Source: a virus (Duplodnaviria > Heunggongvirae > Uroviricota > Caudoviricetes). Taken from it: DNA of 64,000 nucleotides. The notes beneath the pieces are model-generated. The model was not told the origin of the DNA and ran no database searches. It saw only the letters and a program-made list of their open reading frames with translations. This document shows positions 10,820 through 63,217 of this stretch, in pieces. Positions within the stretch are counted from its first letter, which is position 1. Every line of letters begins with the position of its first letter. A program made the position numbers and the translations under genes. The DNA is taken from positions 12,652-76,651 of IMG/VR virus record IMGVR_UViG_2609459822_000013, one strand, 5' to 3'.

Positions 10820-10989
10820 ACGAGATCGAAGACGGTATCTATTTGCACATGTTATTTAATATCGCCTATTTGGTTAAAGGTGATAAGGTGATGACACAAA
10901 GCGCTGGCAATAAATATTGGGAATCAAGCGGAATGGATCGGTGGCATATGCAGATGTTGCTTGATAATGGCCTGATATACAGGAAGCAG

Positions 10990-11257
10990 TAAAGCCGTAT
11001 TTGTGGGGGGCAGTATGGAAGAAATGATTTTGCTGTCATTAATATGGCATCGGTTCGGGAGTGAAAAAGGTTACTCGCCTGCTTGCTGGCTGGATAGTAA
11101 AAGTGGGAAGGGGGATCAAAACGAATGCGAATTTAGAAGGGAGTGGCGAGGCGGTAAGGAAGTGCAAGGATATTTTGCACCGAAACACGTCGCCGCCAAA
11201 TACAAAGAATGGCTTGTTCGTTTGCTTGGCCCTTATCGTTAAAGCCGTATTTGTGGG
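10990..11257 (+). repeat. 18-bp direct repeat (taaagccgtatttgtggg) at 10990-11007 and 11240-11257
   Basis: Both copies begin with the stop codon of the preceding ORF and read identically in the sequence. Confidence 0.6.
11003..11242 (+). CDS. Hypothetical small protein flanked by an 18-bp direct repeat
   Basis: 79-aa ORF lying between two copies of taaagccgtatttgtggg. Confidence 0.3.
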   Translation: MGGSMEEMILLSLIWHRFGSEKGYSPACWLDSKSGKGDQNECEFRREWRGGKEVQGYFAPKHVAAKYKEWLVRLLGPYR

Positions 11258-11279
11258 TCGAAAACAAACAGATTAAAAT
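11251..11279 (+). promoter_or_regulatory. Candidate sigma70 promoter upstream of the lysis cassette (possible late promoter)
   Basis: TTGTGG, 17-nt spacer, TAAAAT; followed within ~30 nt by an intrinsic terminator, a lambda pR'/tR'-like arrangement. Confidence 0.3.
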
Positions 11280-11307
11280 ATTACCTAACAATGCGAAACT
11301 GTAACTA

Positions 11308-11329
11308 CCCGGCCCCGTGCCGGGTTTTT
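11308..11329 (+). terminator. Rho-independent terminator just upstream of the holin gene (tR'-like)
   Basis: GC hairpin cccggc-cccgt-gccggg followed by T5. Confidence 0.5.
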
Positions 11330-12501: not shown

Positions 12502-12780
12502 CAGCGCGTTGACGTGTCGCCGTTTCTGTCAGCCAGCCATAACCGGGCCAATCCTTCCCGCGAGCGACGGCGGAATAGTCAAAAACACGTAATACCGGAT
12601 CAACAGTCCCATTAACAGGTCAGGCGCTACCTGGGTAGAAGAAAGCGCCATTCACCAATTTTATAAAATTCTGGAAACGGTACTGATGAAGCGCCGTTTT
12701 CAGTGTTTTATAACTGTTTTCACTCCCTGCGGTGTCGAGTTTTGCGGGGGTTATATTTTTCAGAATAGGAGATTATTCTG

Positions 12781-13323
12781 ATGGCTAAGGCTAAAGGCAT
12801 TAAATTGCCTCAATTTAAGATCCCACTCTTTGAGCATACAACCGTTTTTTTTTGCCCGACCCGCGAGATGTTCTATGAATTTTGCGAAAAGGCAGGAATT
12901 CCGATTGAACCTGATTTCGAGTTGGCTGGAGGATTAACGCTTACTTGCACTGGCGAGAATGGTGGTAACTTCTACGTGATCGCAGTATTCAACAATGAGT
13001 TGGGAACGCTGGTCCATGAATGCGCCCACACTACATTCCACGTTTTAAGTGATGTAGGCGTCGTGGCTACCACGGATCCTACCCATCCGGCGAATGAGAC
13101 TTACGCTTACATGGTAGGCCGTATCTTCGATGCGTTTTTCCCTATCCTAGCAGAATCAAACGAAGCACAGGTTGCAGCAATGCAGGCGGCAGAAGTCGTC
13201 GATCAGGCGCTGGAACAGGCAGAACAGCCGAAGGAAGAAGAAAAGCCAGCGAAGAAAGGTAAACGTAAGCCTAAGCAAAAAGATGCGTTAGTCCAGCGTG
13301 TAATGAGCTTTAAACGAGGCTGA
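12781..13323 (+). CDS. HExxH-motif protein (putative zinc metallopeptidase-like) with lysine-rich C-terminal tail
   Basis: 180 aa; LVHECAHTTFH motif; C-terminal KEEEKPAKKGKRKPKQK tail. Confidence 0.4.
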   Translation: MAKAKGIKLPQFKIPLFEHTTVFFCPTREMFYEFCEKAGIPIEPDFELAGGLTLTCTGENGGNFYVIAVFNNELGTLVHECAHTTFHVLSDVGVVATTDPTHPANETYAYMVGRIFDAFFPILAESNEAQVAAMQAAEVVDQALEQAEQPKEEEKPAKKGKRKPKQKDALVQRVMSFKRG

Positions 13324-13325
13324 TT

Positions 13326-13415
13326 ATGATTGCATCAATATTAACGTTTATAGGCGGTATGGCGGCTGGATTCATTCTTTGCATGTTTCTGGTGGTTATG
13401 TCTAAGCAGGATTGA
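13326..13415 (+). CDS. Mini-ORF 1 of 9: 29-aa single-helix hydrophobic peptide
   Basis: MIASILTFIGGMAAGFILCMFLVVMSKQD; ATG 3 nt after the upstream stop. Confidence 0.4.
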   Translation: MIASILTFIGGMAAGFILCMFLVVMSKQD

Positions 13416-13417
13416 TT

Positions 13418-13525
13418 ATGGATGATTACATTATCGCCGGATTAATCGGTATCTCTGTGTTTCTGGTGGGTTCTATTATAGTTGCGCTGATAAACGTATA
13501 TATCAAGTATTTGGTGGAGGGGTAA
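13418..13525 (+). CDS. Mini-ORF 2 of 9: 35-aa hydrophobic peptide
   Basis: MDDYIIAGLIGISVFLVGSIIVALINVYIKYLVEG; AGGA upstream. Confidence 0.4.
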   Translation: MDDYIIAGLIGISVFLVGSIIVALINVYIKYLVEG

Positions 13526-13526
13526 G

Positions 13527-13601
13527 ATGATTGACCCGCTCATTATCCTTTCTGCCTGCGTCGCTGTATGGCTGGCGATCATGATATTCATTGAAAGCTG
13601 A
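13527..13601 (+). CDS. Mini-ORF 3 of 9: 24-aa hydrophobic peptide
   Basis: MIDPLIILSACVAVWLAIMIFIES; GGAGG upstream. Confidence 0.4.
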   Translation: MIDPLIILSACVAVWLAIMIFIES

Positions 13602-13612
13602 AGGCATCCACA

Positions 13613-13693
13613 ATGAACGCATACGAAATGCTATTGCTGGTGGCTGTAGTTGTAGTCATTGCCGTAGATGTTTATCGGGAGTTTAAAAAATGA
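13613..13693 (+). CDS. Mini-ORF 4 of 9: 26-aa hydrophobic peptide
   Basis: MNAYEMLLLVAVVVVIAVDVYREFKK; AAGG upstream. Confidence 0.4.
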   Translation: MNAYEMLLLVAVVVVIAVDVYREFKK

Positions 13694-13758
13694 AATGGCT
13701 TGATTTCTTTTTCCTGATTGTTGCAATTGTTCTCACTATGATCGCACTGACTCAATAG
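13690..13758 (+). CDS. Mini-ORF 5 of 9: 22-aa hydrophobic peptide
   Basis: MKWLDFFFLIVAIVLTMIALTQ; ATGA overlap with ORF 4. Confidence 0.35.
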   Translation: MKWLDFFFLIVAIVLTMIALTQ

Positions 13759-13766
13759 GTGAGCTA

Positions 13767-13841
13767 ATGAACGCTATTGATATTATGTTGATCGTGTGTA
13801 CAGTTGCGTTATTTATTATCTTGGTAATTATCAATGTCTGA
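13767..13841 (+). CDS. Mini-ORF 6 of 9: 24-aa hydrophobic peptide
   Basis: MNAIDIMLIVCTVALFIILVIINV; GGTGAG upstream. Confidence 0.4.
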   Translation: MNAIDIMLIVCTVALFIILVIINV

Positions 13842-13899
13842 CAGTGATTTCTTAATTATAGCTATAAGCGCGTTATTAGTTGTCGTTTTCTTCGCGTAA
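13834..13899 (+). CDS. Mini-ORF 7 of 9: 21-aa hydrophobic peptide
   Basis: MSDSDFLIIAISALLVVVFFA; overlaps ORF 6, no clear SD (coupled). Confidence 0.3.
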   Translation: MSDSDFLIIAISALLVVVFFA

Positions 13900-13913
13900 G
13901 CAGGATGGAAAAC

Positions 13914-13985
13914 ATGAAAGACTCAGATTTCTTCTATATGGTTTTCACTATCGTCATTATTACTTGGGTGCTTTCTGTTATGTGA
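13914..13985 (+). CDS. Mini-ORF 8 of 9: 23-aa hydrophobic peptide
   Basis: MKDSDFFYMVFTIVIITWVLSVM; AGGA upstream; N-terminus paralogous to ORF 7. Confidence 0.4.
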   Translation: MKDSDFFYMVFTIVIITWVLSVM

Positions 13986-13996
13986 AGGGTGAAAAG

Positions 13997-14080
13997 ATGA
14001 AAGAATTATTCTACTGGTTGGAAGTATTAACGTACTGCGCAAGTATTGTGATTTGCGTATATATCATCATTAATTTTTGA
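13997..14080 (+). CDS. Mini-ORF 9 of 9: 27-aa hydrophobic peptide
   Basis: MKELFYWLEVLTYCASIVICVYIIINF; GGGTGA upstream; track ORF 13880-14080 is a run-on of this frame. Confidence 0.4.
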   Translation: MKELFYWLEVLTYCASIVICVYIIINF

Positions 14081-14090
14081 GAGGTGAATT

Positions 14091-14576
14091 ATGGCCCGCA
14101 CGAAAAAGGCAAATGCTGACGATAAAAAGCCAGCAGCCAAAAAGACGGGCCGTCCGCATGGCTATACCGAAGAAAAGGCATTAGAGATCTGTGAACTAGT
14201 GGCGGACGGTCATAGCGTTAATAAAATTTCGAAGATGCCAGGTATGCCAACGCGTTCGACGATCCTTAAATGGTTCAGAGATGTGCCGGAGTTTTCGGAC
14301 ATGTATGTACGCGCGAAGGAGATCGGTTTTGAGGTTTTAGCCGATGAGATCATAGATATAGCAGATGCAGCAGAGAACACTGATAAAGATCAATTGCGCC
14401 GCCATCAACTGATGATTGAAACGCGTAAATGGTTACTGGCAAAACTGCAACCGCGTAAATACGGTGAACGCGTCACACAGGAGATTGTCGGCAATAGGGA
14501 GGAGGCGCCAGTACAGGTGGAAGTAACGAAAGAAGAGATCGCCCGCATCGTCCAGGAAGTAGAAGATGAGGTGTGA
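14091..14576 (+). CDS. Terminase small subunit
   Basis: 161 aa; basic N-terminus, HTH-like segment; directly upstream of and overlapping the large terminase. Confidence 0.55.
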   Translation: MARTKKANADDKKPAAKKTGRPHGYTEEKALEICELVADGHSVNKISKMPGMPTRSTILKWFRDVPEFSDMYVRAKEIGFEVLADEIIDIADAAENTDKDQLRRHQLMIETRKWLLAKLQPRKYGERVTQEIVGNREEAPVQVEVTKEEIARIVQEVEDEV

Positions 14577-25409: not shown

Positions 25410-27746
25410 ATGGATACCAGTGTAGGTACAATTTATTACGAAGTTGATGCGAAAACTAGTCAACTTCTCGTTGCACAACGACAGGCAGACCAGGCCTTTG
25501 GGCGTATAGAGCGCGGCGCAAAACAGGCTGACCGCCAGGTAAACACCCTGAAAACATCCATCAAGGCACTGACCAGGGTTATCCATTTGCTAATTGCTGC
25601 GGAGGCCGTGCGTCAATTCATGGATATGGCGGAGCAAGCAAAAATGCTTCGCGTAAAAATCAAAATGCTTACGGGCGATGCGGAGTCCGCCGGACGGGTT
25701 TTTGATGGCCTAAAAGCAATATCAAAAGAAACAGGCCAAAGCATGAAGGATACCGGGGATCTGTGGCAAGGCTTAGCTATCTCACTGAAGAACACGTCCG
25801 CCACTGAAGGGCAATTGCTTAACCTGGTAGGTACGATTCAGAAAATGGGGGCGTTGGGCGGCGCGTCAGCTGAGCAGATGTCAAACTCAATGCGTCAATT
25901 CCGTCAGTCTATCGACGGTGGCGTGTTGCGTGCTGAAGAATTCAACAGCCTGTTAGAAAACACCCCGACCATCGTACAGACAATGGCACGCCAGATGGGG
26001 TTATCAATGGGCCAATTCCGCGCCGAAATGCTGGACGGTAAGATCACGGCAGAAAGGATGGTTAACGCAATCCAGGCGGCTACGCAGGAAACAAACGAGA
26101 AGTTTGCGCAGTTGCCGCGCACATCCGGCATGGCCCTGAATGAGCTTAAAGTCGAGGTTATGGGACTTGTTGAGCAATTGGATGATCTTTTCGGTGTATC
26201 CGATACGGTTGTTGCTGGTATCGATCTTGTAACGAAAGGTGTTAAGGCTTTAGGTGAAGGCGCTGATTTCGCTAAAACCTGCTTTAACACCCTGAAGACG
26301 GCTGGTGGCGAATTCATCGACATGTTTGAAGATGTCAGAATCAAGGCTGGCGAGGTAGCCGAGAAGATCATCGCAATGGTGACGCCAATCAAGGCACTAA
26401 TGGATGCCTACAAATGGATGAAGGAGGTCGTAGGAGAGCAAACCGACGAATATAACAGCAACTACGAGAAGAAATACGGTAAGACCGTTGGCAAGGTCAT
26501 GCAACTACAGGATGATCTGACCGCAGCAATCCAGGCTACAGAAGAAGCAAGGAAAAATGAACAGAATGCCGCCAATGACGGAGCGATTACCGGATTCGAA
26601 AAGCCAGTAGACAAACCGAAAAAACAGAAAAAAGAGAAGAAATCTGAAGCTGATCGTCTTGGCGATAAAGGTATAAGCGTTTCTGACCAGTACAACAAAG
26701 ACGCCGCCGCTATGCGCAAAGCGTTAGAGAGCGGCAAGGCCATTGATGCTGCATTCGCCCAGGGTAAAATCACTCTCCTTGAGTACCGCGCCGCGCAAAA
26801 AGGGATAGGTAAGGAACTAAAGGAAGAATTAGCACAAATTCCGGTAGAGGAATTGCGCGACAAATGGGAGCAAATAGTAAGCCCGATGGATCAGCTAAAG
26901 GGCGAAGTAGACCCTATTCAGCAGGTTCAAAATGAATGGGCCGTCCGTAAGCAAATGCTTATCGACCTGGGCGTGACGGAAGCGCAACAGAAACAGGAAC
27001 TGTTAGCCTATGAGCAACAGATCCGCGATCTGAAGTGGGAGCAATGGCAGGCGCAAAGCGACACAAACAGCCTTATCGGTGATTGCGTTAATGGCCTTAA
27101 AGGTGGTATGAGCAATGCACTTGTTGGCCTGTTAAATGGTACTCAATCATTGAGTGATGTTTTTGCTAACTTAGGCAGCAATATCCTCGGGAATATCGGT
27201 AACAGGCTTTCAGACATAGCTGCAAACTGGATAGCAGATCAGATCATGATGGAAACGCAAAGCAAAGCGACTCAGGCAAGTACCACGGCGGGCGCGGTAG
27301 CGGCGCAAGGCCAGATTGCTGCGGCGGCGGCCCCGGCGGCGGCGGCAACAGCGGCGTCAACTGGCGGCGCATGGGCGGCGGCTGGTTCTGCGGCACTCAC
27401 TGCGATCATGTCGCTGGCTACGTCAATTTTTGGCGGCGGTCGCTTTAATGGTGGTAGCGTCATTGGTGGCAATATGTACCGTGTAGGGGAACACAACAGG
27501 CCGGAGCTATTCCAGACATCTAACGGAAATCAATATATGATCCCTGGCGAGAATGGCAGGGTTATTCCTGGTCGTGACATTGGCGGTGGCATTAGTATGC
27601 CTGTCAATATCAACATTCAGACCACAAACGGATTTAGCGACGAGGACAGCCGCAGACTTGAGCAGACAATGGAACGTGTAGCAATGAAAATGATAACAAG
27701 GGAATCACAACGACCAGGCGGAATATTGCAACCTCGCCGCAAATAA
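25410..27746 (+). CDS. Tail tape measure protein
   Basis: 778 aa; long helical, Ala/Gly-rich, typical tape-measure composition; position upstream of gpM/L/K/I/J. Confidence 0.7.
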   Translation: MDTSVGTIYYEVDAKTSQLLVAQRQADQAFGRIERGAKQADRQVNTLKTSIKALTRVIHLLIAAEAVRQFMDMAEQAKMLRVKIKMLTGDAESAGRVFDGLKAISKETGQSMKDTGDLWQGLAISLKNTSATEGQLLNLVGTIQKMGALGGASAEQMSNSMRQFRQSIDGGVLRAEEFNSLLENTPTIVQTMARQMGLSMGQFRAEMLDGKITAERMVNAIQAATQETNEKFAQLPRTSGMALNELKVEVMGLVEQLDDLFGVSDTVVAGIDLVTKGVKALGEGADFAKTCFNTLKTAGGEFIDMFEDVRIKAGEVAEKIIAMVTPIKALMDAYKWMKEVVGEQTDEYNSNYEKKYGKTVGKVMQLQDDLTAAIQATEEARKNEQNAANDGAITGFEKPVDKPKKQKKEKKSEADRLGDKGISVSDQYNKDAAAMRKALESGKAIDAAFAQGKITLLEYRAAQKGIGKELKEELAQIPVEELRDKWEQIVSPMDQLKGEVDPIQQVQNEWAVRKQMLIDLGVTEAQQKQELLAYEQQIRDLKWEQWQAQSDTNSLIGDCVNGLKGGMSNALVGLLNGTQSLSDVFANLGSNILGNIGNRLSDIAANWIADQIMMETQSKATQASTTAGAVAAQGQIAAAAAPAAAATAASTGGAWAAAGSAALTAIMSLATSIFGGGRFNGGSVIGGNMYRVGEHNRPELFQTSNGNQYMIPGENGRVIPGRDIGGGISMPVNINIQTTNGFSDEDSRRLEQTMERVAMKMITRESQRPGGILQPRRK

Positions 27747-37365: not shown

Positions 37366-37611
37366 TTATTTTTTACACCCATCATTTACACCAGAAAAAT
37401 GGATAGGTAAATTACATTCACTGTCAATAATTTTACCTTGTAGTTGTTTTTCTTTCCATGAGTCAGTATTGAAATAACTCGAACGTTGGTTATCAAGGCC
37501 AGTATCACCATATTGAGCAGTGCCAGCATCACTCTTATCTGTCGAATTTACAGAAGCAAAAGCACCAAAAGACAGAGCTGATAAGATGCAAGCAACAATT
37601 AGTTTTTTCAT
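37366..37611 (-). CDS. Antisense moron, small secreted protein with signal peptide
   Basis: Internal ATG (MKKLIVACILSALSFGAFA) with AAGGTG RBS; two cysteines in mature part; between J and tail fiber. Confidence 0.4.
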   Translation of the reverse strand: MKKLIVACILSALSFGAFASVNSTDKSDAGTAQYGDTGLDNQRSSYFNTDSWKEKQLQGKIIDSECNLPIHFSGVNDGCKK

Positions 37612-37808
37612 TGTATTCACCTTACTGTTTGTTTTACTGTCATTTGTTGTTCGTGATGATCCACCCATCCGATGAGCAAATCACCGCAGAAGCTATCATT
37701 TCGTATGTTGATATAGATCAAAAAATACATTATGCATAAGCTCAAAGTGTAACGCGGATTACAAAATGGTAGAATTATTCCGTTAATTAACATAATGGAG
37801 TCATTGCA

Positions 37809-41802: not shown

Positions 41803-43176
41803 GTGACCGCTTTTTCTACCCTGAATGTTTTGCCTCCCGCCCAACTCACGAACCTTAATGAGTTGGGTTATTTAACTATGACGCCGGTGCAGGCCGCCGC
41901 GCTTCCGGCGATCCTTGCCGGAAAAGATGTTCGCGTGCAGGCGAAAACCGGCAGCGGCAAAACGGCGGCTTTTGGCCTCGGCTTGTTACAGCAAATTGAT
42001 GCGTCGCTATTTCAAACCCAGGCTTTAGTGCTGTGTCCTACGCGTGAACTGGCGGATCAGGTGGCAGGTGAATTGCGTCGGTTGGCGCGTTTTCTGCCAA
42101 ATACCAAAATTTTGACGTTGTGCGGTGGTCAACCGTTCGGTATGCAGCGTGATTCGTTGCAACATGCGCCGCATATTATCGTGGCAACGCCGGGCCGTTT
42201 GTTGGATCATCTGCAAAAAGGCACGGTATCACTGGATGCGTTGAATACGCTGGTGATGGATGAGGCCGACCGCATGCTGGATATGGGATTTAGCGACGCC
42301 ATTGATGATGTCATCCGTTTTGCGCCAGCATCTCGACAGACGCTTCTGTTTTCGGCAACCTGGCCGGAAGCCATCGCCGCAATCAGCGGACGAGTGCAAC
42401 GCGATCCTTTAGCGATTGAAATTGACTCAACAGATGCTCTGCCACCTATTGAACAACAATTTTATGAGACATCCAGCAAAGGCAAAATTCCGTTGTTGCA
42501 ACGGTTATTAAGTTTGCATCAGCCATCCTCTTGCGTGGTGTTTTGCAATACCAAAAAAGATTGCCAGGCTGTCTGCGACGCGCTGAATGAAGTAGGGCAA
42601 AGTGCATTGTCGTTACACGGCGATCTGGAGCAACGTGATCGCGATCAGACCCTGGTACGTTTTGCTAACGGTAGCGCCCGTGTACTGGTTGCGACTGATG
42701 TTGCTGCGCGAGGTCTGGATATTAAATCGCTTGAGCTGGTGGTGAACTTTGAGCTGGCGTGGGATCCTGAAGTTCATGTGCATCGCATCGGTCGTACAGC
42801 GCGTGCAGGAAATAGCGGTCTGGCGATCAGTTTCTGTGCCCCGGAAGAAGCACAGCGGGCCAATATCATTTCTGACATGTTGCAGATAAAACTTAACTGG
42901 CAAACGCCGCCAGTTAATAGTTCTATTGTGCCGCTGGAAACCGAAATGGCAACGTTATGTATCGATGGCGGGAAAAAAGCCAAAATGCGCCCGGGTGATG
43001 TATTAGGTGCGCTGACAGGAGATATCGGGCTTGATGGCGCAGATATTGGCAAAATCGCCGTGCATCCGGCGCATGTCTATGTCGCGGTGCGTCAGGCTGT
43101 TGCTCATAAAGCATGGAAACAGTTACAGGGCGGGAGGATTAAAGGAAAAACGTGCCGGGTGCGGTTATTAAAATAA
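41803..43176 (+). CDS. dbpA: ATP-dependent RNA helicase DbpA (DEAD-box)
   Basis: 457 aa; AKTGSGKT Walker A, DEAD box, SAT, HRIGRTAR motifs. Confidence 0.9.
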   Translation: MTAFSTLNVLPPAQLTNLNELGYLTMTPVQAAALPAILAGKDVRVQAKTGSGKTAAFGLGLLQQIDASLFQTQALVLCPTRELADQVAGELRRLARFLPNTKILTLCGGQPFGMQRDSLQHAPHIIVATPGRLLDHLQKGTVSLDALNTLVMDEADRMLDMGFSDAIDDVIRFAPASRQTLLFSATWPEAIAAISGRVQRDPLAIEIDSTDALPPIEQQFYETSSKGKIPLLQRLLSLHQPSSCVVFCNTKKDCQAVCDALNEVGQSALSLHGDLEQRDRDQTLVRFANGSARVLVATDVAARGLDIKSLELVVNFELAWDPEVHVHRIGRTARAGNSGLAISFCAPEEAQRANIISDMLQIKLNWQTPPVNSSIVPLETEMATLCIDGGKKAKMRPGDVLGALTGDIGLDGADIGKIAVHPAHVYVAVRQAVAHKAWKQLQGGRIKGKTCRVRLLK

Positions 43177-43304: not shown

Positions 43305-44240
43305 TTATTTCACTTCAACCACATTCAGCCGTAACTCATCCAACTGATTTTCATCTTCTTCAGGCTGCCAACCTGCCGGTTGTAGAGGGATCTCTTCGCG
43401 ATCAAACGCCAGATCACCCCCGTTAACCACTTCAGAACCGTGGGTAATGCCTTTGAAATCGAACAGGTTGGTATCGCACAGATGCGACGGCACCACATTC
43501 TGCATCGCGCTGAACATCGTCTCGATACGCCCCGGATAACGTTTATCCCAGTCACGCAACATGTCAGCAATCACCTGACGTTGCAGGTTAGGCTGTGAAC
43601 CGCACAGGTTGCACGGAATAATCGGGAACGCTTTTGCATCGGCAAAGCGCTGAATATCTTTCTCGCGGCAGTAGGCCAGCGGGCGAATCACGATATGTTT
43701 GCCATCATCGCTCATCAGTTTCGGAGGCATACCTTTCATCTTGCCGCCGTAGAACATATTTAAGAACAACGTTTGCAGGATATCGTCACGATGGTGACCC
43801 AGCGCGATCTTCGTCGCTCCCAGTTCCGTTGCGGTACGATAAAGGATACCGCGACGAAGACGAGAACACAGTGAGCAAGTGGTTTTGCCCTCCGGAATCT
43901 TCTCTTTCACGATACCGTAAGTGTTCTCTTCAACAATCTTGTACTCAACGCCCAGCTTTTCAAGATACTCGGGCAGAACGTGTTCCGGGAAGCCCGGTTG
44001 CTTTTGATCGAGGTTAACAGCCACCAGCGAAAAATTGATTGGCGCGCTTTGCTGCAAATTGCGCAGAATTTCCAGCATGGTATAGCTGTCTTTACCCCCG
44101 GAGAGGCAAACCATGATGCGATCGCCTTCTTCAATCATATTGAAGTCAGCAATGGCTTCGCCCACGTTACGACGCAGACGTTTTTGTAATTTGTTCAGGT
44201 TGTATTGTTCTTTCTTTGTAATTTGTTGATTTTCTTTCAT
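43305..44240 (-). CDS. ttcA: tRNA 2-thiocytidine biosynthesis protein TtcA
   Basis: 311 aa; PP-loop SGGKDS and CxxC pairs; adjacent to the Rac integrase as in E. coli K-12. Confidence 0.9.
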
Positions 44241-44291: not shown

Positions 44292-45527
44292 CTACGATAA
44301 CCGCGCATTCAACATGGCTACCTGTTCGTCGTTCATGTCATCAATCCACATACCGTAAATTTCATACACCATCTGCGCAGTTTCATGCCCCATCTGGCTG
44401 GCTATAAACGCCGGGTTCGCTCCTGCCGTCAACAGCCAGCAGGCAAAAGTATGCCGCGTATGGTACGGATTACGGCGGCGAATACCAGCACGTTTTACTG
44501 CTGCATTCCATCTCGCACCCAAACTGCTTACCGAGTAATAAGGTTTCTGTTTTCCGTTACACACTCTGGGCATGAAAACAAAATGCAGTTTTTGCTTTTC
44601 GGTTCTGCCGTACTCCCGATGATAAAAAGTGATTTCGCTTTTGCGATGATGCCCGGTCAGTTTGTATTGCTCCTTCAGTGCTTCAAGAGCAGGCTGCAGT
44701 AGTGTTACTGTCCGGATCCCGGCATTTGTTTTTGGGGGACCGAACATATCAAGTATCGTCAGGTTTCTTCTGACATTCACTATTCCCTTTTCGAGATCCA
44801 CATCCTCCCACGCCAGAGCTGCCAGTTCCCCGTGACGAAGTCCTGAGTAAACGGCAAATTTCCACAAGTTCTGGCTCTGTCCTTTTTCACTTTCCATTAA
44901 TGCATTGAATTCTGTTTTAGATAACGGATCAGGCTTTATTCTGTTTCGCTGTAATTTTTTTACTCCTTCAAATGGTTTGGTTGATATAAATCCCGACTGA
45001 TACGCAAAACGCAACAGCGAACAGAGCAGGGCGATATAGTTATCAACTGTGCGCACGGTTCTTCCTTTTTTGTTGGATCTTGGATTATCCAGGTAAAGCG
45101 TTTCTCCATGCAGCAGTTCATTCCGGTAGATTAAGATATCGCTATAACGAATATGTGATATCGGGGTACTTTCACAAATTATTATTCTGAGTGTTTTTAA
45201 TTGTGATTTCGTTTTCTTCATTGTGTTTGTTGTTAACTCTGTCTCTTTAATTTTTGTCCAGATATCACAAAGTTCTCCGAACGTTTTTATGACTCTCGTT
45301 GTCACCATTTTTGCCCCAGTGCTGGACTGGGGAAAACGTCTTAAATACTCAAATTCACCGGAGTTTATTTCATGAACTATCAGCGATCTTAAATTTCCGG
45401 CCTTTTTAATATTACTGTTTGTAATCTCCCAGCCTTTTAATGTTTCCCGACATCGTTTTCCTCGAAACATGAACCAGATGCGAATGTATCTACCTCTAAT
45501 CTCGACACCTGTTGGTAATTTAGACAT
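44292..45527 (-). CDS. intR: Tyrosine integrase (Rac-type)
   Basis: 411 aa; C-terminal R...HxxR...Y catalytic pattern (HTRHTFA, YEIYGMW); adjacent to ttcA. Confidence 0.9.
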   Translation of the reverse strand: MSKLPTGVEIRGRYIRIWFMFRGKRCRETLKGWEITNSNIKKAGNLRSLIVHEINSGEFEYLRRFPQSSTGAKMVTTRVIKTFGELCDIWTKIKETELTTNTMKKTKSQLKTLRIIICESTPISHIRYSDILIYRNELLHGETLYLDNPRSNKKGRTVRTVDNYIALLCSLLRFAYQSGFISTKPFEGVKKLQRNRIKPDPLSKTEFNALMESEKGQSQNLWKFAVYSGLRHGELAALAWEDVDLEKGIVNVRRNLTILDMFGPPKTNAGIRTVTLLQPALEALKEQYKLTGHHRKSEITFYHREYGRTEKQKLHFVFMPRVCNGKQKPYYSVSSLGARWNAAVKRAGIRRRNPYHTRHTFACWLLTAGANPAFIASQMGHETAQMVYEIYGMWIDDMNDEQVAMLNARLS

Positions 45528-46275: not shown

Positions 46276-47085
46276 TTATTCCTCTGAATTATCGATTACA
46301 CTGTATTCCCCGGTTAATACAGAGGAATCTGCAGGATCGATTGTCAGTGGTTCCTTTTCATCCATTGATACTGCACGCTGGATCTCAATTGATACGGGCA
46401 GATATTTGAACAGGCGACGAATAGCTGTTTTCTTTGCCATTTCTTCCCAGTGAGTTACCCACGGCCCGTTATTACCAGCTTTACTCTGGCTGCGCACCAG
46501 CTCAATCTGTCTGCGCGTCATAACTTCAAACTGAGTACCTCCGTCTTTCAGTCTTGCGACAGCATAGACGTGGGTAACCGGGGCATCTTCGTTTTCTCCT
46601 GGGCGGTGTATTAACTTTTCATCAAGGCCAAATTCGAAATTAAATTCGTCACCTTCACGGACAACACGGGCTGACAGGCTGGCGATTTGACCTGAACGGC
46701 GAGCCAGATCAATCATGCCGCGATAGCCAATGATTAGCTGAACGTTTTTTTTACCGCTCTTTTCGTTTTTATTACCAAAAGGCAGTAAATATGCATGACC
46801 GAGGGCGCTACCTGGCTCAAGTCCGAGCTGTGAACACTGTACGATTGCACTGACAAAACTCATAGTGTCACAGTTTCCTAACGCCGGAACTTTACGAATT
46901 TCTGTGGTGGCGATACGGATCATACGTTCAGCCGTCATATGGCGTGGAAGAGCTGCTGCCAGTTGCTCTTTCATTGATGGCTGGTTAATAAAACTAATCA
47001 CGTCGTTATTTTTAATTGCTGCTGGTGCACGGTTTTCCTGAGTTTTTTGCAGATCGGCTTTTGCGATTGGTGGTTGCTTAGTCAT
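46276..47085 (-). CDS. recT: Recombinase RecT (single-strand annealing protein)
   Basis: Internal ATG (MTKQPPIAK) gives 269 aa; matches RecT as I recall it. Confidence 0.85.
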
Positions 47086-49729
47086 TTGCATATTCCTTAG
47101 CCCAGCGGGGCAGTGATAACGTCTTAATAGCTGGCCATTCATCGGTATTGAGGCAGTCAGCCAGGGTTCGCAGATTGCGGTGATATTCCAGCTGACCTGC
47201 TAGTTTTGCTTCTTCGCCCATCATGAAAATTTCAACCGGATAACGTCCGCATTCAATAGTTGTGCTGGCAACCAGAAAAACGAAAGTTGGCTGCACTCCA
47301 AACTGTGCTTCATAACCGTCACTGTAGAATGCATCCTGAACGTGATAGCGGTAGTCGTAATAAGCGGTTTTGAATCGTTGAATATCCGCCGTAGTTTTCA
47401 CGTCCATGATCCAGTGAAATTCAGGGATAATTTTGTCCGGACGGCACCGACACAAAATTCCTGTTTCAGGATCTTCCCAGTAAATTGATGATTCAGCGTG
47501 TCCGGCGCTTTCAACAAGCCATTGCCCCAGCGGCAAAGCCATAACGCTTTGATACATCAGTTCAATTTTCCGGCCTTCTTCCGCAGTGATAACCATTTTT
47601 CCTGTGCTTGCGCATTCCATCAGAAACGCTTTCTCTTCTTCTTTTCCGGCGTTTGTACGGCGGTTAAATTCAGGTGCTACGATAAAGCGGTTACTGAATT
47701 CTTCCGGTTCAAGTACCCGGCAGTGGAAAGCGGTTCCTAAATCGAGCGTTTTTGTCTTTGTGGTGTCCACGGGGGCATTTTTACGCCACAAATACAGTGC
47801 CGGAGTATCAGCAATGTCATCGAGCTGAGACTTACTGACACCGGGACCTGCGTGGTAATTCTCATTCGAAATTCCGTAATAAATACCTGGCTCTATGTCT
47901 TCTACGATTACGGGATCTGCGACTTCGCCAGTTTCATCACTGCAATCGCGATGCGGATCGCTGCCAGCATTCTCATTGTGCGGATGTTCAGCGCCTTCCA
48001 TTTCCTCCGGATCATTTTCCTTAGCTTCAACCTGATTCTCTTCAGCGAATTTTTCCTGGTTTGTTGCGTCCCCCACCCCCCCACCACGGCCAGGGCATTT
48101 ACCCCCGCCAGTCTGGCCGCAGGCATTGAAGGCTATTTCCGGTTCCTGTTGCACTACTGGCTCAGGTTGTTTCATATCCGGGCTGGTTTTTTCCGTTTCT
48201 GGCTGGTTCTGGTACACAGAATCGCGAGTCTGGATCCCCTTAACCCATTTCGGATCGTTCGGGTCGCTAATTCCGTCAACAAATTCACCACGTGATGCAG
48301 CAAGCAATTTATCGGCATCGACAGGATTTTTTGATGGAATGTTTTTCCGAGCTTCATGGAGTTCTGCCCGCAGTTCCTGATATTTCGCATCAACAGAATT
48401 TACCTGTGACTGAGCATCCAGCGGCTGCGTGTCCTGATGATGTTTAGTTGCGTCCGGTTCCATTGTTTCAGCCTCTCCCTGTTCATCTGCCGTTGTTCCA
48501 GATGGTTGCAGTTTTTCTTCATCATCCTGTTTTCCTTCTTCTGTTACTCGCTGCGGCATCGGGGCAGAGGAGCGACCGCAGGCAATATCCACGATTTCCG
48601 GATCAGGGTTGGCATGATCGGTTTCAGTCAGTACTTTGTTCAGATATGCAGTGACGTGAGCGGGGATGACCTCGATCCCAATTGGTGCTTCTTTCACGGA
48701 CGCAACCACGATGGCGCGGGAATAATCCAGCCCGCCAGGCATGGTGATGAATTTGTCGCGGAAAACAGAAAAGGGCGGTTTATTTTCAGCGATAATTTCC
48801 TCAATGCGTTTAGCGTGTGCCGGATGAAGGTTATAGATGTCCACGTCCATTGAACGGGCCAGTACGCCAGTGGCTATATCGCGCGCCAGTGACGTCAGAT
48901 CGTGGACGAAACCTTCGCCGCGATCTGTGAGGTTCCCGCCGCCAGCATTAGCACCGGAAGCCGTGCGAGTGATGCGTGAAACACGATTCCCTTTTCGCCA
49001 TTCTTTTGTCAGAAGACCGCGATCAATGTGTTCGGTATCCAGCCAGGCTGAAATGAAATTCTTAAATTCATAGGGCTGATGTTTTTTAGTGATAGAGAAA
49101 ACTGCCTTAATTGCATCAGTCAGGCGGAGCAGGGCGGCATTATCCAGAGTTGTCGGTTCTGCCATGCCGCGTATGGCCAACAGCAGATTCTGGACATAGC
49201 TGTTTTCCTGATCCATCTCAAGAGCAGTAATGTGTTCGCGTTGTTCTCGGGTGGCATGATGCAGGTATTTCCGATCCCCGGCCGCATACGTAAAAATGTG
49301 CAGAAGACGCTGTGTGAACCGCAAAGTGGCTACAGAGACTTCGCAATCCTGGCAATCCTCGTGGGCGTCTGCCTGCGCGTTTTCTTCCTGGCCTCCCGCC
49401 AGTTCGTTGGTTTCTTGAGCATTATCCTGGTGGTGAACGTCGTCTGGCGCTGCTCCCGGTTTTAGTTCCCATGTCATGGAGTCTTTGCTGAGTTGATAGC
49501 GTTCACTCCAGGTAAAATCGATCTCACCTTCAGGGGGAAGGTCATTAACGACAGGAAAATTTGTGGCAACAGCTTTAAAATAGTTGCTCAGTTTTTTACC
49601 TGACTTAACGATCAGGTAGTCCAGAGTGGCACAGGTCGATTCAAAATCGTCGCTTGCCCACAGGACGACGTCAGGTTCACCGGATGATTTTTTCGCTTTC
49701 CGTAACAGGAAGAGTGGTTTTGTGCTCAT
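47078..49729 (-). CDS. recE: Exodeoxyribonuclease VIII (RecE)
   Basis: 883-aa ORF overlapping recT start; C-terminal nuclease region; start uncertain. Confidence 0.8.
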
Positions 49730-55987: not shown

Positions 55988-57142
55988 ATGGATTATTTAT
56001 CAGAAGTGTTAAAAATCATTGAAGGTGCAACAAAGGCAAATGCTTCGATGGCTAGTAATTATGCTGGGTTGCTGGCAGATAAGCTCGAACAAAAAGGGGA
56101 GGTCAAGCAAGCCAGAATGATAAGAGAAAGGTTGCTTAGAGCTCCCCAGGCGTTGGCAGGAGCTCAAAGGGCTGGAGGTGGGATATCTCTGGGCTCATTA
56201 CCGGTAGATATTGATAGTCGACTCAACACTGTTGATGTCAGTTATCCTAAATTAGACAGTTCAGAGATTTTTCTGCCTGCAGCAATCAGTACCCGTGTTG
56301 AAGAGTTTATCACTAATGTTCAACGTTATGATGAGTTTGTTAAAGCTGATGCAGCATTGCCGAGTCGTATGCTCGTGTATGGAAAGCCAGGAACAGGTAA
56401 GACTATGTTATCTAAGTACATCGCTACCCGCTTAGATTTTCCACTTCTTACAGTGCGTTGCGATACTTTGATTAGTAGTTTATTGGGACAAACCAGCAAA
56501 AATCTTAGACAGGTTTTCGATTATGTAATGCAGAGGCCATCAGTGCTTTTTTTAGACGAATTTGATGCTTTAGCTGGAGCAAGAGGTAATGAGAGAGATA
56601 TAGGTGAGCTTCAGCGAGTTGTCATTTCACTATTGCAGAATATGGATGCGGCATCAGAGGATACGGTAATTATTGCCTCAACTAACCATGAGCAACTTCT
56701 GGATCCTGCAATCTGGAGGCGATTTAGCTTCAGAATTCCAATGCCTCTGCCTGACATACATCAGAGAGAGTTAATTTGGAAAAATCGTTTAAAGAATATG
56801 ATATGTAGCGATCTAGATTTAAGTGATTTATCAAGAAAATCGGAAGGATTATCCGGAGCAATAATTGAACAGGTGAGCTTGGATGCACGTAGGGATGCAG
56901 TTATTGAAGGTGCAAGTGTGATAAATCACCATAAATTGTATAGGCGTTTGTATCTTGCTCAATCGCTTATGGAAGGGGTAAATTTAAGCACTTACGAAGA
57001 TGAAATTCGTTGGTTACGTTCTAAAGATAAAAAATTATTTTCTATCAGAGTTCTTGCTAATTTGTACAAACTTACATCAAGAGTAATTTCAAACATTCTG
57101 AAGGAGTCAGGAGCATATGAGCAGAAGGGGTACACAGTTTAG
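55988..57142 (+). CDS. AAA+ ATPase (IetA-like candidate defense ATPase)
   Basis: 384 aa; Walker A GKPGTGKT, Walker B VLFLDEFDAL, sensor/Arg region ASTNHEQLLDPAIWRRF; AT-rich gene, 26-nt overlap with the protease gene. Confidence 0.75.
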   Translation: MDYLSEVLKIIEGATKANASMASNYAGLLADKLEQKGEVKQARMIRERLLRAPQALAGAQRAGGGISLGSLPVDIDSRLNTVDVSYPKLDSSEIFLPAAISTRVEEFITNVQRYDEFVKADAALPSRMLVYGKPGTGKTMLSKYIATRLDFPLLTVRCDTLISSLLGQTSKNLRQVFDYVMQRPSVLFLDEFDALAGARGNERDIGELQRVVISLLQNMDAASEDTVIIASTNHEQLLDPAIWRRFSFRIPMPLPDIHQRELIWKNRLKNMICSDLDLSDLSRKSEGLSGAIIEQVSLDARRDAVIEGASVINHHKLYRRLYLAQSLMEGVNLSTYEDEIRWLRSKDKKLFSIRVLANLYKLTSRVISNILKESGAYEQKGYTV

Positions 57143-59381
57143 TAACGCAAAAGTTACAAACCCAATGTTAAGAATCCCTTTTTCCAGTAGTGACTTGGGT
57201 GCAATAGTAAACGCTGGCGGTGGGGCAAAGGTATTGGTTGATGTAACAGCCGAATATAGACAAGGGCTAGTAAGAAATTTAACAACCAGTAAACATTATT
57301 TAGAATCCAAACTTTCAGAGTACCCTGGAAGCTTGGGTACTTTGGTTTTCAAATTAAGAGACCAGGGAATAGCCAAAACGCATAGGCCGAACAAAATTGC
57401 TCAAGAGGCTGGATTGCAAAATGCCGGTCATGCCAAAATAGATGAAATGTTGGTTGCTGCTCATGCCGGCTGTTTTGACGTATTAGAGTCAGTCATTTTA
57501 CATCGGAATATTAAAGCGATTTTGGCTAATCTAAGCGCGATTGAGCGCATTGAACCTTGGGATGAGAATAGGAAGGTTCCAGGAGGCACTGATGGTTTGT
57601 TTGAATCATCAAACATCCTTGTACGACTATTTGAGTACACAGGTGAAGATGCAACTTACAACAACTATGAAAACGTTATTTCTATATTAGAACAACACGG
57701 AGTTAAATATGATGAGATTAGACAAAAATGTGGTCTTCCCTTATTAAGGATAATGGATTTATCCCCAAATGATAGATATATATTAGACATTCTCATTGAT
57801 TACCCGGGTATAAGAACGTTAATTCCTGAACCAAAATATTCAGCATTCCCGGTTAGTGTAAGTGATTCTGTTGGCATTGAAACAAATAGCTTTCCCGTAC
57901 CATCAGAAGAATTACCCATTGTTGCTGTATTTGACACTGGGGTAAGCCCCATCGCGGCAACAATTACTCCTTGGGTAGTGAGTAGGGAAACATACGTAAT
58001 TCCTCCTGATACGAGTTATGAACATGGGACTATGGTGTCTTCATTGATATCAGGCGCTCATTTTTTAAATGACAATCATCCATGGATTCCTGATACAAAA
58101 TCTAAAATCCATGATGTTTGTGCCTTAGATGAAAATGGATCTTATATATCAGATTTAATTCTGAGGCTAGCAGATGCTGTAAATAAAAGACCAGATATAA
58201 AAGTCTGGAATTTGTCTTTGGGAGGCGGACCATGTAATGAGCAGACGTTTAGTGATTTTGCGATGGAGTTAGATCGGCTCAGCGATAAATTTGGTATTTT
58301 GTTTGTAGTTGCTGCAGGTAATTATGTAGATGAACCTATACGTACATGGCCAAATCCTGATCCGCTTGGAGGTGCTGATTTAATTTCCTCTCCTGGAGAG
58401 TCAGTCCGAGCACTAACAGTTGGTTCAGTTTCTCATATGGAAGCTAATGATGCTTTAAGTGAAATTGGAACACCGACACCATATACTCGTCGTGGCCCTG
58501 GGCCTGTATTTACTCCAAAGCCAGATATAATCCATGCTGGCGGTGGGGTTCATAGACCTTGGAATGTAGGAGCAAGCAGTTTAAAGGTCGTAGGGCCAGA
58601 TAATAGGCTTTGCTCTAATTTTGGTACTAGTTTTGCTGCTCCAATTGTGGCAAGTTTAGCTGCGCATACATGGCAGAGAATAGCCACTAATACAGACTTT
58701 AATGTTTCACCATCATTGATTAAAGCATTATTAATTCATTCCGCTCAATTATCTTCTCCTGATTACTCGCCAAGTGAAAGACGCTATTTGGGAGCGGGAA
58801 TTCCTAATGAAGTTATTGAGACCTTATATGATAGTGATGATAGGTTTACTCTGATTTTCCAAACATTCTTGGTTCCTGGGGTGAGGTGGAGAAAGGATAA
58901 CTATCCCATACCATCGGCACTTATTCAAAATGGAAAATTTAAAGGTGAGATTGTAATTACTGCTGCATATGCACCACCACTGAACCCTAATGCCGGCAGT
59001 GAATATGTTCGCGCGAACGTAGAGCTAAGTTTTGGCTTAATTGAGAATAATACTATAAAAGGAAAAGTGCCTATGGAAGGAGAAAACGGTCAATCTGGAT
59101 ATGAGAGAGCTCAAATTGAGCATGGTGGAAAGTGGTCACCAGTAAAAATTCATCGCAAGGCATTTAATAAAGGAATTACTTCGGGTAACTGGGCTCTTCA
59201 GGCTAAAACAACGTTGAGAGCGAATGAACCGGCCTTAATGGAGCCTTTACCTGTAACTATTGTAGTAACTTTAAAATCATTAGATGGAAACACACAAGTT
59301 TATGCTGATGGCGTAAGAGCTTTAAATGCTAATAACTGGGCTCACTATCCATTGCCTGCTCGTGTGCCAGTTTCCGTATAA
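57117..59381 (+). CDS. Subtilisin-like serine protease, S8 family, cytoplasmic (IetS-like candidate defense protease)
   Basis: 754 aa; catalytic D (VFDTGVS), H (HGTMVSS), S (GTSFAAP) and oxyanion N (NLSLGG); no signal peptide; ~270-aa N-terminal extension. Confidence 0.75.
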   Translation: MSRRGTQFSNAKVTNPMLRIPFSSSDLGAIVNAGGGAKVLVDVTAEYRQGLVRNLTTSKHYLESKLSEYPGSLGTLVFKLRDQGIAKTHRPNKIAQEAGLQNAGHAKIDEMLVAAHAGCFDVLESVILHRNIKAILANLSAIERIEPWDENRKVPGGTDGLFESSNILVRLFEYTGEDATYNNYENVISILEQHGVKYDEIRQKCGLPLLRIMDLSPNDRYILDILIDYPGIRTLIPEPKYSAFPVSVSDSVGIETNSFPVPSEELPIVAVFDTGVSPIAATITPWVVSRETYVIPPDTSYEHGTMVSSLISGAHFLNDNHPWIPDTKSKIHDVCALDENGSYISDLILRLADAVNKRPDIKVWNLSLGGGPCNEQTFSDFAMELDRLSDKFGILFVVAAGNYVDEPIRTWPNPDPLGGADLISSPGESVRALTVGSVSHMEANDALSEIGTPTPYTRRGPGPVFTPKPDIIHAGGGVHRPWNVGASSLKVVGPDNRLCSNFGTSFAAPIVASLAAHTWQRIATNTDFNVSPSLIKALLIHSAQLSSPDYSPSERRYLGAGIPNEVIETLYDSDDRFTLIFQTFLVPGVRWRKDNYPIPSALIQNGKFKGEIVITAAYAPPLNPNAGSEYVRANVELSFGLIENNTIKGKVPMEGENGQSGYERAQIEHGGKWSPVKIHRKAFNKGITSGNWALQAKTTLRANEPALMEPLPVTIVVTLKSLDGNTQVYADGVRALNANNWAHYPLPARVPVSV

Positions 59382-62114: not shown

Positions 62115-62504
62115 ATTCCTTCCTCAGGACAAAAAAAGACACGAGCATCCTGGAATACTCGTGGGACAAAGTCCTTTAGATAGCAATTTGCGAGAGGGTG
62201 AAAAAGTAGCGCGGTCGTCGGATTAAGACCGCGGGACAAAGTCCATGAAGAATAATAAGTATTGGCCCCCTTCTGGGGACATGTTCATACTACTAAGCTT
62301 CAGAAGTGGTTTAAATCATCAAATTGACCTTAATTTTCGATAAGTCTTATTTCATTTCTTTGCGCCACATCTGGCGCGCATCAAATAACGCCACGCAAAG
62401 GGCATCTGCGGATGCCGGTGCTTTTGACGGGGTGTTTTTTACGGGCCGCTGGTGGCCATTTTTTGTTTCCATTACACAGCGCCCGCATCTGCGAGGTGGG
62501 GGTT

Positions 62505-62720
62505 ATGAAATCCATGGATAAGTTAACAACGGGTGTCGCCTATGGCACCTCCGCAGGCAGTGCTGGCTACTGGTTTTTACAGTTGCTCGATAGAGTAACT
62601 CCGTCACAGTGGGCTGCAATCGGTGTGCTGGGTAGTCTGGTATTTGGCCTGCTGACGTACCTGACAAACCTTTATTTCAAGATTAAAGAAGATAAGCGCA
62701 AGGCTGCGAGAGGTGAATAA
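62505..62720 (+). CDS. essD: Pinholin, S21 family, with dual-start motif
   Basis: 71 aa from MKSMDK; matches the S21/EssD sequence as I recall it; track ORF starts further upstream in frame. Confidence 0.8.
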
Positions 62721-63217
62721 TGCCTCCATCATTACGAAAAGCCGTTGCTGCTGCTATTGGTGGCGGAGCAATTGCTATAGCATCAGTGTTAATCACTGGC
62801 CCAAGTGGTAACGATGGTCTGGAAGGTGTCAGCTACATACCATATAAAGATATCGTTGGTGTATGGACTGTATGTCACGGACACACCGGAAAAGACATCA
62901 TTCCCGGTAAAACGTATACCGAAGCAGAATGCAAAGCCCTCCTGAATAAAGACCTTGCCACGGTCGCCAGACAAATTAACCCGTACATCAAAGTCGATAT
63001 ACCGGAAACAACGCGCGGCGCTCTTTACTCATTCGTTTACAACGTGGGTGCTGGCAATTTCAGAACATCGACGCTTCTTCGCAAAATAAACCAGGGCGAT
63101 ATCAAAGGCGCATGTGATCAGCTACGTCGCTGGACATATGCTGGCGGTAAGCAATGGAAAGGTCTCATGACTCGTCGTGAGATTGAGCGTGAAATCTGTT
63201 TGTGGGGTCAGCAATGA
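62720..63217 (+). CDS. rrrD: SAR endolysin (lysozyme)
   Basis: 165 aa; N-terminal SAR domain ([18 protein letters not shown]); lysozyme E/D/T triad. Confidence 0.85.

Follow-up and report, generated by a model that had tools for sequence, protein, structure and literature searches.

Few parts of bacterial and phage genomes have received as little annotation as small membrane proteins. The small inner-membrane proteins AcrZ, MgrB, MgtS and KdpF modulate larger membrane proteins via helix-helix contacts, and bovine papillomavirus E5, which is little more than one transmembrane helix, binds the transmembrane domain of a host protein. Here, we describe a phage locus that would encode a whole series of peptides of similar build. 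It occupies positions 13326-14080, on the (+) strand, of a 64,000-nucleotide (nt) stretch of DNA (positions 12,652 to 76,651 of the IMG/VR record IMGVR_UViG_2609459822_000013; the whole stretch is called the window hereafter) and consists of nine consecutive open reading frames (ORFs) of 21-35 amino acids (aa). Comparison with related loci has shown that these ORFs behave as real, separately initiated mini-genes under purifying selection, each of them predicted to encode one hydrophobic helix. The window corresponds to Escherichia coli chromosomal DNA carrying two prophages. The array is found in the first one, a temperate siphovirus of the mEp021 type ('mEpimmI'). The mEpimmI phages form a group of non-lambdoid coliphages that is prevalent in the human gut (PMC11893012).

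Like AcrZ, MgrB, MgtS and KdpF, the array peptides fall within the range of 20-50 aa, comprise a single transmembrane helix without enzymatic domain and are often missed by annotation. However, the former are encoded by solitary chromosomal genes whereas the latter come in phage arrays of 9-13 genes, and the two sets have no sequence relationship. With E5, encoded by a single gene of a eukaryotic virus, the analogy would be one of mechanism only. The genomic setting corresponds to an accessory region, a concept developed for variable phage genes located between core genes (bioRxiv 10.1101/2023.04.06.535777): the flanks, a gene for a HExxH-containing protein upstream and the small terminase subunit gene terS downstream, are conserved and the content varies among close relatives. 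As in other phage accessory hotspots, including anti-CRISPR-type loci, a slot between core genes is filled with variable small genes undergoing horizontal exchange. Here, however, the genes are far smaller (21-47 aa), belong to one structural type (a single hydrophobic helix) and follow a strict order. Small phage membrane proteins in an accessory hotspot are of a known kind. The array itself is previously undescribed and missed by standard annotation, and its architecture is an unusual variant, in which as many as 13 genes, drawn from about 21 families and each encoding a single-helix peptide of 21-47 aa, are arranged collinearly. In a gut-prevalent group of E. coli phages, up to 13 selected mini-genes thus occupy one slot that RefSeq leaves empty.

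A preliminary description of the locus had reported nine consecutive same-strand mini-ORFs. Exactly nine ATG-initiated ORFs of at least 18 aa are indeed found, consecutive and together covering 92% of the region, and the minus strand of the same interval contains no comparable mini-ORF. Designated by the letters of their families, all on the (+) strand, they are N (13326-13415; 29 aa, MIASILTFIGGMAAGFILCMFLVVMSKQD), E (13418-13525; 35 aa, MDDYIIAGLIGISVFLVGSIIVALINVYIKYLVEG), A (13527-13601; 24 aa, MIDPLIILSACVAVWLAIMIFIES), B (13613-13693; 26 aa, MNAYEMLLLVAVVVVIAVDVYREFKK), C (13690-13758; 22 aa, MKWLDFFFLIVAIVLTMIALTQ), F (13767-13841; 24 aa, MNAIDIMLIVCTVALFIILVIINV), G (13834-13899; 21 aa, MSDSDFLIIAISALLVVVFFA), J (13914-13985; 23 aa, MKDSDFFYMVFTIVIITWVLSVM) and D (13997-14080; 27 aa, MKELFYWLEVLTYCASIVICVYIIINF). 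The exact N peptide is also on record in E. coli KTE44 and HVH 110. In order to estimate the chance level, hydrophobic mini-ORFs were counted on one strand in 2000 dinucleotide-preserving shuffles of the region. None was found in 1643 shuffles, one in 330, two in 26 and three in 1, as compared with the nine observed. The rest of the window contains six scattered hydrophobic mini-ORFs, 2 on the (+) strand and 4 on the (-) strand. Phage lambda contains three in total and at most one per 800 nt; the earlier statement that it has nothing comparable holds. Isolated hydrophobic mini-ORFs of 28-42 aa are seen at 37586-37675 (+), 27553-27681 (+) and 59522-59436 (-) of the window (for example MQATISFFIVFTLLFVLLSFVVRDDPPIR).

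The nine peptides are all hydrophobic, with a best 15-aa Kyte-Doolittle window of 2.5-3.5 and one core of 15-19 residues each. The summed insertion energy on the Hessa scale ranges from -0.8 to -6.1 kcal/mol and is favourable in every case, in agreement with the proposal of one hydrophobic helix per ORF. The N-terminal flanks consist of few residues and are either neutral or acidic (net charge 0 to -2), with an Asp or Glu at residue 3-5 in 7 of the 9 peptides. The C-terminal flanks are also short and mostly uncharged; only that of B, which ends in a basic tail, is net basic (+2), and that of A carries a charge of -1. The LSAC motif of peptide A resembles a lipobox, and a lipoprotein was considered. 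This assignment was rejected because the segment before the motif is acidic and not long enough and because the motif is lost in the variants LSLC and LSVC.

Translation signals accompany the mini-genes throughout. Each of them has its own Shine-Dalgarno (SD) site or overlaps the preceding stop codon. The mean energy of the SD:anti-SD duplex at the nine starts (-5.48 kcal/mol) equals that at the first ATGs of the long ORFs of the window (-5.49 kcal/mol) and is stronger than that at all ATGs (-2.43 kcal/mol; Mann-Whitney p = 4.6e-4), which agrees with the earlier remark that most of the ORFs have an SD motif. Individual values reach -9.8 kcal/mol for A and -5.1 kcal/mol for E, and F is preceded by AGGTGA. 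From N to D, the gaps between consecutive genes are 2, 1, 11, -4, 8, -8, 14 and 11 nt. The two overlapping pairs announced previously are B/C, where the start of C overlaps the stop of B (4 nt, ATGA), and F/G (8 nt). The eighth ORF, J, has a first ATG at 13905, which would give 26 aa. Its start is likely the second ATG, at 13914, because the SD motif sits before this codon (-6.5 kcal/mol, versus -0.6 kcal/mol before 13905) and because orthologues start there: they begin with MRESDF, equivalent to MKDSDF in the window.

Both ends of the array are also coupled to the flanking genes. N starts 2 nt past the stop codon of the upstream gene (junction TGATTATG), and the stop codon of D lies 10 nt before the start of terS, the SD motif of which (GAGGTGA) begins at the final base of that stop codon. 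Each of the six frames across the region contains at least nine stops, so that no long gene is hidden there. There is no excess of promoters or terminators within the array (7 promoter-like sites versus 8.4 expected), no excess of antisense promoters and no Rfam match. The mini-genes were also compared with morons as defined by Hendrix, which have their own promoter and terminator. No such signal excess is seen here and the junctions are translationally coupled.

Purifying selection on the peptides was assessed with the unique nucleotide sequences of modal length in each family, by counting minimal changes per codon column. Synonymous changes were taken as distinct codons minus distinct amino acids and nonsynonymous changes as distinct amino acids minus one. 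Same-length codon columns were used, because families E, I, J and K vary in length and are misaligned when anchored at the stop codon. For the ORF frame, the counts were 297 synonymous and 262 nonsynonymous changes, giving an omega of ~0.24 (~278 synonymous and 1012 nonsynonymous sites). The +1 frame (103 and 283 changes) gives 0.83 and the +2 frame (82 and 413 changes) gives 1.37. The excess of synonymous changes in the ORF frame is highly significant (binomial p = 5e-60; ORF versus shifted frames, Fisher p = 6e-36). Among the 16 families tested, 15 have an omega of 0.13-0.39, the remaining one being J, with 0.69 from just 3 unique sequences. The values are ~0.28 for N, ~0.30 for E, ~0.20 for A, ~0.14 for B, ~0.31 for C, ~0.24 for F, ~0.31 for G and ~0.15 for D. 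Moreover, peptide A is identical at 24 of 24 positions in a metagenome contig (L067) whose upstream protein is only 60% identical. This argues for a sequence-specific constraint beyond mere hydrophobicity.

The comparison covered 68 arrays: that of the window and those of 7 GenBank phages, 12 E. coli prophages (drawn from the 34 of 5426 complete genomes with a match), 46 IMG/VR contigs and 2 metagenome contigs. In the last two, the upstream protein is just 60-71% identical. In all 68 arrays, mini-ORFs of this kind, the starts and stops of which are conserved, fill the space from the HExxH gene to terS, and no array has a continuous gene in their place. With this conservation of ORF boundaries and the omega of ~0.24, the ORFs are real mini-genes and not the remains of a gene decayed by frameshifts. 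The mini-genes cluster into about 21 families, which follow the collinear order [N|K|P|Q]-(Q)-E-(T)-R-A-H-S-I-B-L-C-F-G-J-M-[D|O]. A further family, U (MGDFLLLIV...), is found at the first or second position of two arrays. There are 46 distinct architectures with zero order violations, whole genes being either present or absent. Arrays contain 3-13 genes (median 9) in a slot of 0.3-1.15 kb, and they persist beside at least three different types of terS (161, 171 and 166-208 aa). The core families A (64 of 68 arrays), B (66), C (63) and D (62, with the allele O in 4 more) are near-universal. The other families vary, E being present in 59 arrays and F in 50, and N being an alternative to K, P and Q at the first position. 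The smallest arrays have three genes (K-E-D), and some arrays are without A, C or D. The architecture of the window, N-E-A-B-C-F-G-J-D, is also that of a prophage of E. coli N25 (L009; 93% nt identity).

Association between families is not uniform. With p values computed across distinct architectures and not corrected for phylogeny, F and G always occur together (p = 1.6e-9), G never being found without F, and no architecture combines J with its closest paralogue, L (p = 5.5e-4). N and K, as well as D and O, behave like alternative alleles. The preliminary description had distinguished apparent paralogue groups and suggested the amplification of one mini-gene. Groups do exist at the peptide level, but the pairs then put forward are among the weaker links (B-F, z = 4.3; G-J, z = 3.4, up to 4.6). 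Compared with composition-preserving shuffles, stronger similarities are found for R-B (z = 11), L-J (10), C-J (6.5-9.5), K-Q (8) and D-O (7). Modest z values are inflated, because the shuffles destroy the common polar-then-hydrophobic layout. Superfamilies can be delineated, {L,J,C,G} with an M[KR][ED]xDF-helix pattern and {B,R,H,F} with an MNxY[DE]-helix pattern, as well as {K,Q,(N)} and {D,O}. As to amplification, no DNA-level repeats exist among the nine mini-genes. A recent amplification is therefore rejected, and any duplications must be old. Finally, the junctions are kept whatever gene comes next (...TGAAGG-ATG after A, ...TGTATAGGTGA-ATG after H and TGATTATG at the first position). 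These conserved junctions would fit a process in which recombination at the borders of genes adds or removes them.

One family has a second life elsewhere. N matches ~90 genomes of rV5-like Vequintavirus with ~80-84% nt identity and, at the protein level, over its full 29 residues. The segment common to both groups extends from ~7 nt before the ATG (TGATT, including the upstream stop) to the stop codon of N itself. In FV3, two unrelated small genes flank N, which occupies an unannotated 96-nt gap away from the lysis genes. That strictly virulent phages keep N argues for an autonomous function, useful in lytic growth and independent of the other peptides. The single mini-gene N is thus a mobile, self-sufficient unit, shared as a cassette with precise borders. 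Eleven records named 'Campylobacter phage' (MG065647-MG065684) carry the Vequintavirus N with ~80% nt identity. Most of them are ~135-141 kb long, like rV5-like coliphages (two have 35 and 76 kb), and they may therefore be mislabelled.

For the other peptides the distribution is narrow. A tblastn search of 50,697 phage records with the nine peptides retrieved only seven mEpimmI phages, in addition to N in the Vequintaviruses. A back-translated pattern of family A was found only in 35 mEpimmI-type contigs among 2.9 million IMG/VR contigs and had no true match among 185,579 GTDB species representatives, where no TerS relatives were found either. One candidate, in a Cloacimonadota metagenome-assembled genome, falls inside an unrelated 156-aa ORF and was set aside as a chance match. 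In the collections searched, the array, apart from N, is confined to the mEpimmI group.

The genes surrounding the array have the layout of a late operon, in the order promoter-like sites and terminator, holin, lysozyme, Rz-like protein, gap, HExxH gene, array, terS, large terminase and portal. We infer from this position that the array would be expressed late. The segment immediately preceding the holin gene (10891-11325 (+)) contains promoter-like sites and, after them, a strong intrinsic terminator (11307-11325). It resembles the pR'-tR' start of the lambda late operon, which antitermination controls. The lysis genes, for a holin (Phage_holin_2_3), a lysozyme and an Rz-like protein, end at 12501 (+). 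The array had been placed between the lysis cassette and the terminase. It is indeed upstream of the terminase, but the lysis cassette is not adjacent: a 280-nt non-coding gap with a hairpin, which follows the Rz-like gene, and the 180-aa HExxH gene come between them. The hairpin (12662-12712 (+)) is an inverted repeat with 20-nt arms, a fold energy of -26.6 kcal/mol and a z score of -5.07, and in the records of mEp021 and mEp013 a terminator is annotated at the corresponding position. A role as terminator or processing site upstream of the array-containing unit is possible, and the hairpin could split or regulate the late transcript.

The upstream anchor of the array, the 180-aa protein encoded at 12781-13323 (+), matches phrog_1365, of unknown function (E = 2e-31). 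Its gene always precedes the array. The HExxH motif is invariant (H79, E80, H83), and the tail of the protein is rich in Lys and Glu and disordered. Neither a sequence search of the PDB nor a Foldseek search of the PDB with its AlphaFold model (predicted local distance difference test, pLDDT, 73.8) gave a significant match. In one source, a 60%-identical relative bears the putative label 'PolyVal metallopeptidase'. Downstream, terS (14091-14576 (+)) encodes a protein of the Sf6_terminase family (Pfam PF20901, E = 6e-37) and precedes the large terminase (Terminase_6C) and portal genes.

These data can be accounted for in several ways, and the roles suggested by the preliminary description, in host takeover, superinfection exclusion or lysis timing, would be plausible. 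The reading that we favour, with somewhat better than even confidence, is that the nine ORFs are independent microprotein genes of the late operon, gathered in an accessory hotspot, and that their products are single-pass inner-membrane modulators binding membrane targets. The peptides would enter the inner membrane during late lytic growth, the N-terminus probably lying outside and the C-terminus inside. Each of them would act alone, via sequence-specific helix-helix binding to a membrane protein. The target might be a host protein that serves in DNA entry (a transporter or a receptor), an effector of a membrane-acting defence or the holin of the phage itself. If the peptides act individually on membrane targets in this way, the array would thus be a variable toolkit of membrane-protein modulators and not one machine. 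Specific binding is favoured over bulk membrane effects because the exact helices are conserved, N is autonomous and the content varies by whole genes. If true, such arrays would be a source of natural transmembrane-domain ligands and would represent a new class of phage accessory function. In addition, the natural presence/absence matrix of the families, with its 46 architectures, the exclusivity of L and J, the F-G pair and the cassette common to rV5-like phages, provides a ready genetic design.

Several points weigh against this interpretation. Translation and membrane location are predictions from the sequence and any phenotype is putative, and late timing is deduced from position, with a possibly terminating hairpin upstream. 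Scans of all peptides against Pfam, PHROG and NCBIfam gave nothing above threshold, only sub-threshold noise, and no characterised homologue. The hydrophobic cores of C, G, J, B and D have just 15-17 residues, which is short for spanning a bilayer. The selection test pools related, recombining sequences, with a possible bias, and its counts are a parsimony lower bound; on the reverse strand, the wobble-matched frame also reaches 0.35, an expected by-product, the other two frames giving 0.92 and 1.58. Finally, the fixed order and the near-universal A, B, C and D would equally fit a multi-subunit complex.

A more specific proposal, which we consider possible but unlikely, is that the array is a combinatorial toolkit of transmembrane-helix binders, each neutralising or hijacking a different host inner-membrane protein, such as a component used by rivals for DNA entry, a pore-forming abortive-infection effector or a sensor kinase. 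The toolkit would be shaped by an arms race, through gain and loss of whole genes and cassette exchange with virulent phages. If true, it would be the membrane-embedded counterpart of anti-defence gene islands.

Bulk effects on the membrane have to be considered next. Type I toxins (Ibs, ShoB, Ldr, Hok, TisB, DinQ) are very short hydrophobic single-helix peptides, as are those of the array, and some of their genes are present as tandem copies in E. coli. Antiholins, T4 RI and Mu releasin are small membrane peptides that are expressed late from genes near those of holin and endolysin. It can be imagined that the array peptides are membrane-depolarising or toxic, in the manner of type I toxins or YohP, and that their late accumulation lowers the proton-motive force and tunes holin triggering and the time of lysis. 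Their size and hydrophobicity, close to those of Ibs, ShoB, DinQ and YohP-type peptides, and the location of the array a short way downstream of the holin, endolysin and Rz genes, in the same direction, would agree with this. Nevertheless, we regard it as improbable. No peptide matches a toxin family model of Pfam or NCBIfam at E <= 1 (or <= 10), nor a holin family profile of PHROG or Pfam. Every type I locus has a transcription unit of its own and comes with an antisense RNA, whereas the array forms one operon of genes 1-14 nt apart or overlapping, which leaves no room for antitoxin RNAs, and the searches for antisense promoters and RNA families reported above gave no signal. The type I toxin-like organisation suggested by the preliminary description is therefore not retained: size and hydrophobicity agree, but a family match and a separate transcription unit with an antisense RNA antitoxin are missing. 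Unlike the peptides of lysis cassettes, those of the array have no holin or antiholin match and are separated from the endolysin gene by the Rz-like gene, the hairpin gap and the 180-aa gene, and N stands away from lysis genes in rV5-like phages. Moreover, a generic depolarisation would not need sequence-specific conservation.

It is doubtful, in turn, that the core peptides A, B, C and D, with or without the others, form one hetero-oligomeric membrane complex, equivalent to a multi-pass protein made of single-helix subunits, for a late step, for instance lysis control or membrane-associated packaging. The order maintained in 46 architectures, the near-universality of the four families and the constant association of F with G would be expected of such a complex, and tight translational coupling would favour stoichiometric synthesis of its subunits. 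However, a fixed order is also produced by simple descent with deletions, K-E-D arrays and arrays devoid of A, C or D exist, and N functions alone in rV5-like phages.

Still less plausible, in our opinion, is a role in lysogeny, in which the prophage would express the peptides as lysogenic-conversion factors, that is superinfection-exclusion or immunity peptides that keep out the DNA of incoming phages. Temperate phages do encode small exclusion proteins of the inner membrane (HK97 gp15 and P22 SieA), and the variable content of the slot resembles that of arms-race loci. On the other hand, no promoter-like signal rises above background in or before the array, which forms part of the late operon, with coupling to terS, and strictly virulent phages keep family N. 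It should also be noted that exclusion in the mEpimmI phages has so far been assigned to lipoproteins and to the repressor (PMC11893012).

Lastly, it is very improbable that the ORFs do not encode functional peptides and represent a decayed multi-pass membrane protein gene, a pac site, a regulatory DNA or RNA element or upstream ORFs regulating terS: the array is directly upstream of terS, with D coupled to it, and RefSeq annotation calls no genes there, but stops crowd all six frames, relatives have no continuous gene, selection is specific to the ORF frame (omega ~0.24), gain or loss affects entire mini-genes and leaves their neighbours untouched, DNA repeats and RNA family matches are lacking and N survives in a wholly different context, which all but eliminates the pseudogene and non-coding readings.

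The treatment of the array by existing annotation depends on the pipeline. In PHANOTATE- or Pharokka-style GenBank records, some of the mini-ORFs are called 'hypothetical protein', and the original mEp021 record calls none. In PGAP/RefSeq annotation, most of the array intervals, of 750-1100 bp, are blank, and three genomes have a single small coding sequence (CDS) on the + strand. In E. coli O157:H7 LSU61, PGAP also calls a 130-aa antisense CDS across K-E-A-H (locus L012, 1311-1700 (-)). This CDS is probably spurious, since that frame is interrupted by stops in the window and in other relatives. Among NCBIfam equivalogs of E. coli small membrane proteins, the best score was 10 bits, with 'KPN_two_small', for a cut-off of 33. 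The label DUF3789 (PF12664), given by UniRef to one N variant, was rejected, hmmscan giving no match for N and 13.8 bits for a K peptide, with a gathering threshold of 22. The array is not mentioned in the paper defining the mEpimmI group (PMC11893012), 'The Cryptic Bacterial Microproteome' contains no description of a prophage array, and a text search of a collection of papers with the exact peptide sequences gave no match.

Additional genes were observed around the array in some relatives and further along the window. In mEp013 (locus L007, 2100-2585), an HNH endonuclease gene separates the array from the HExxH gene, and another one lies inside the lysis cassette of the metagenome contig L067 (2252-2773). 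Both are probably genes of homing endonucleases. In the window, the first prophage is followed by the host gene dbpA (41803-43176) and by a ttcA-like PP-loop gene (43305-44240 (-)). The region 41803-64000 also contains the second prophage, which is Rac-like and lambdoid, with genes for an integrase (44292-45527 (-)), RecT (46276-47142 (-)), RecE/ExoVIII (47078-49729 (-)), a P21-type holin (62412-62720) and a lysozyme (62720-63217). In this second prophage, at 55988-59381 (+), a gene for an AAA ATPase (384 aa) overlaps that of a subtilase S8 protease (754 aa), and the pair may constitute a two-gene defence system.

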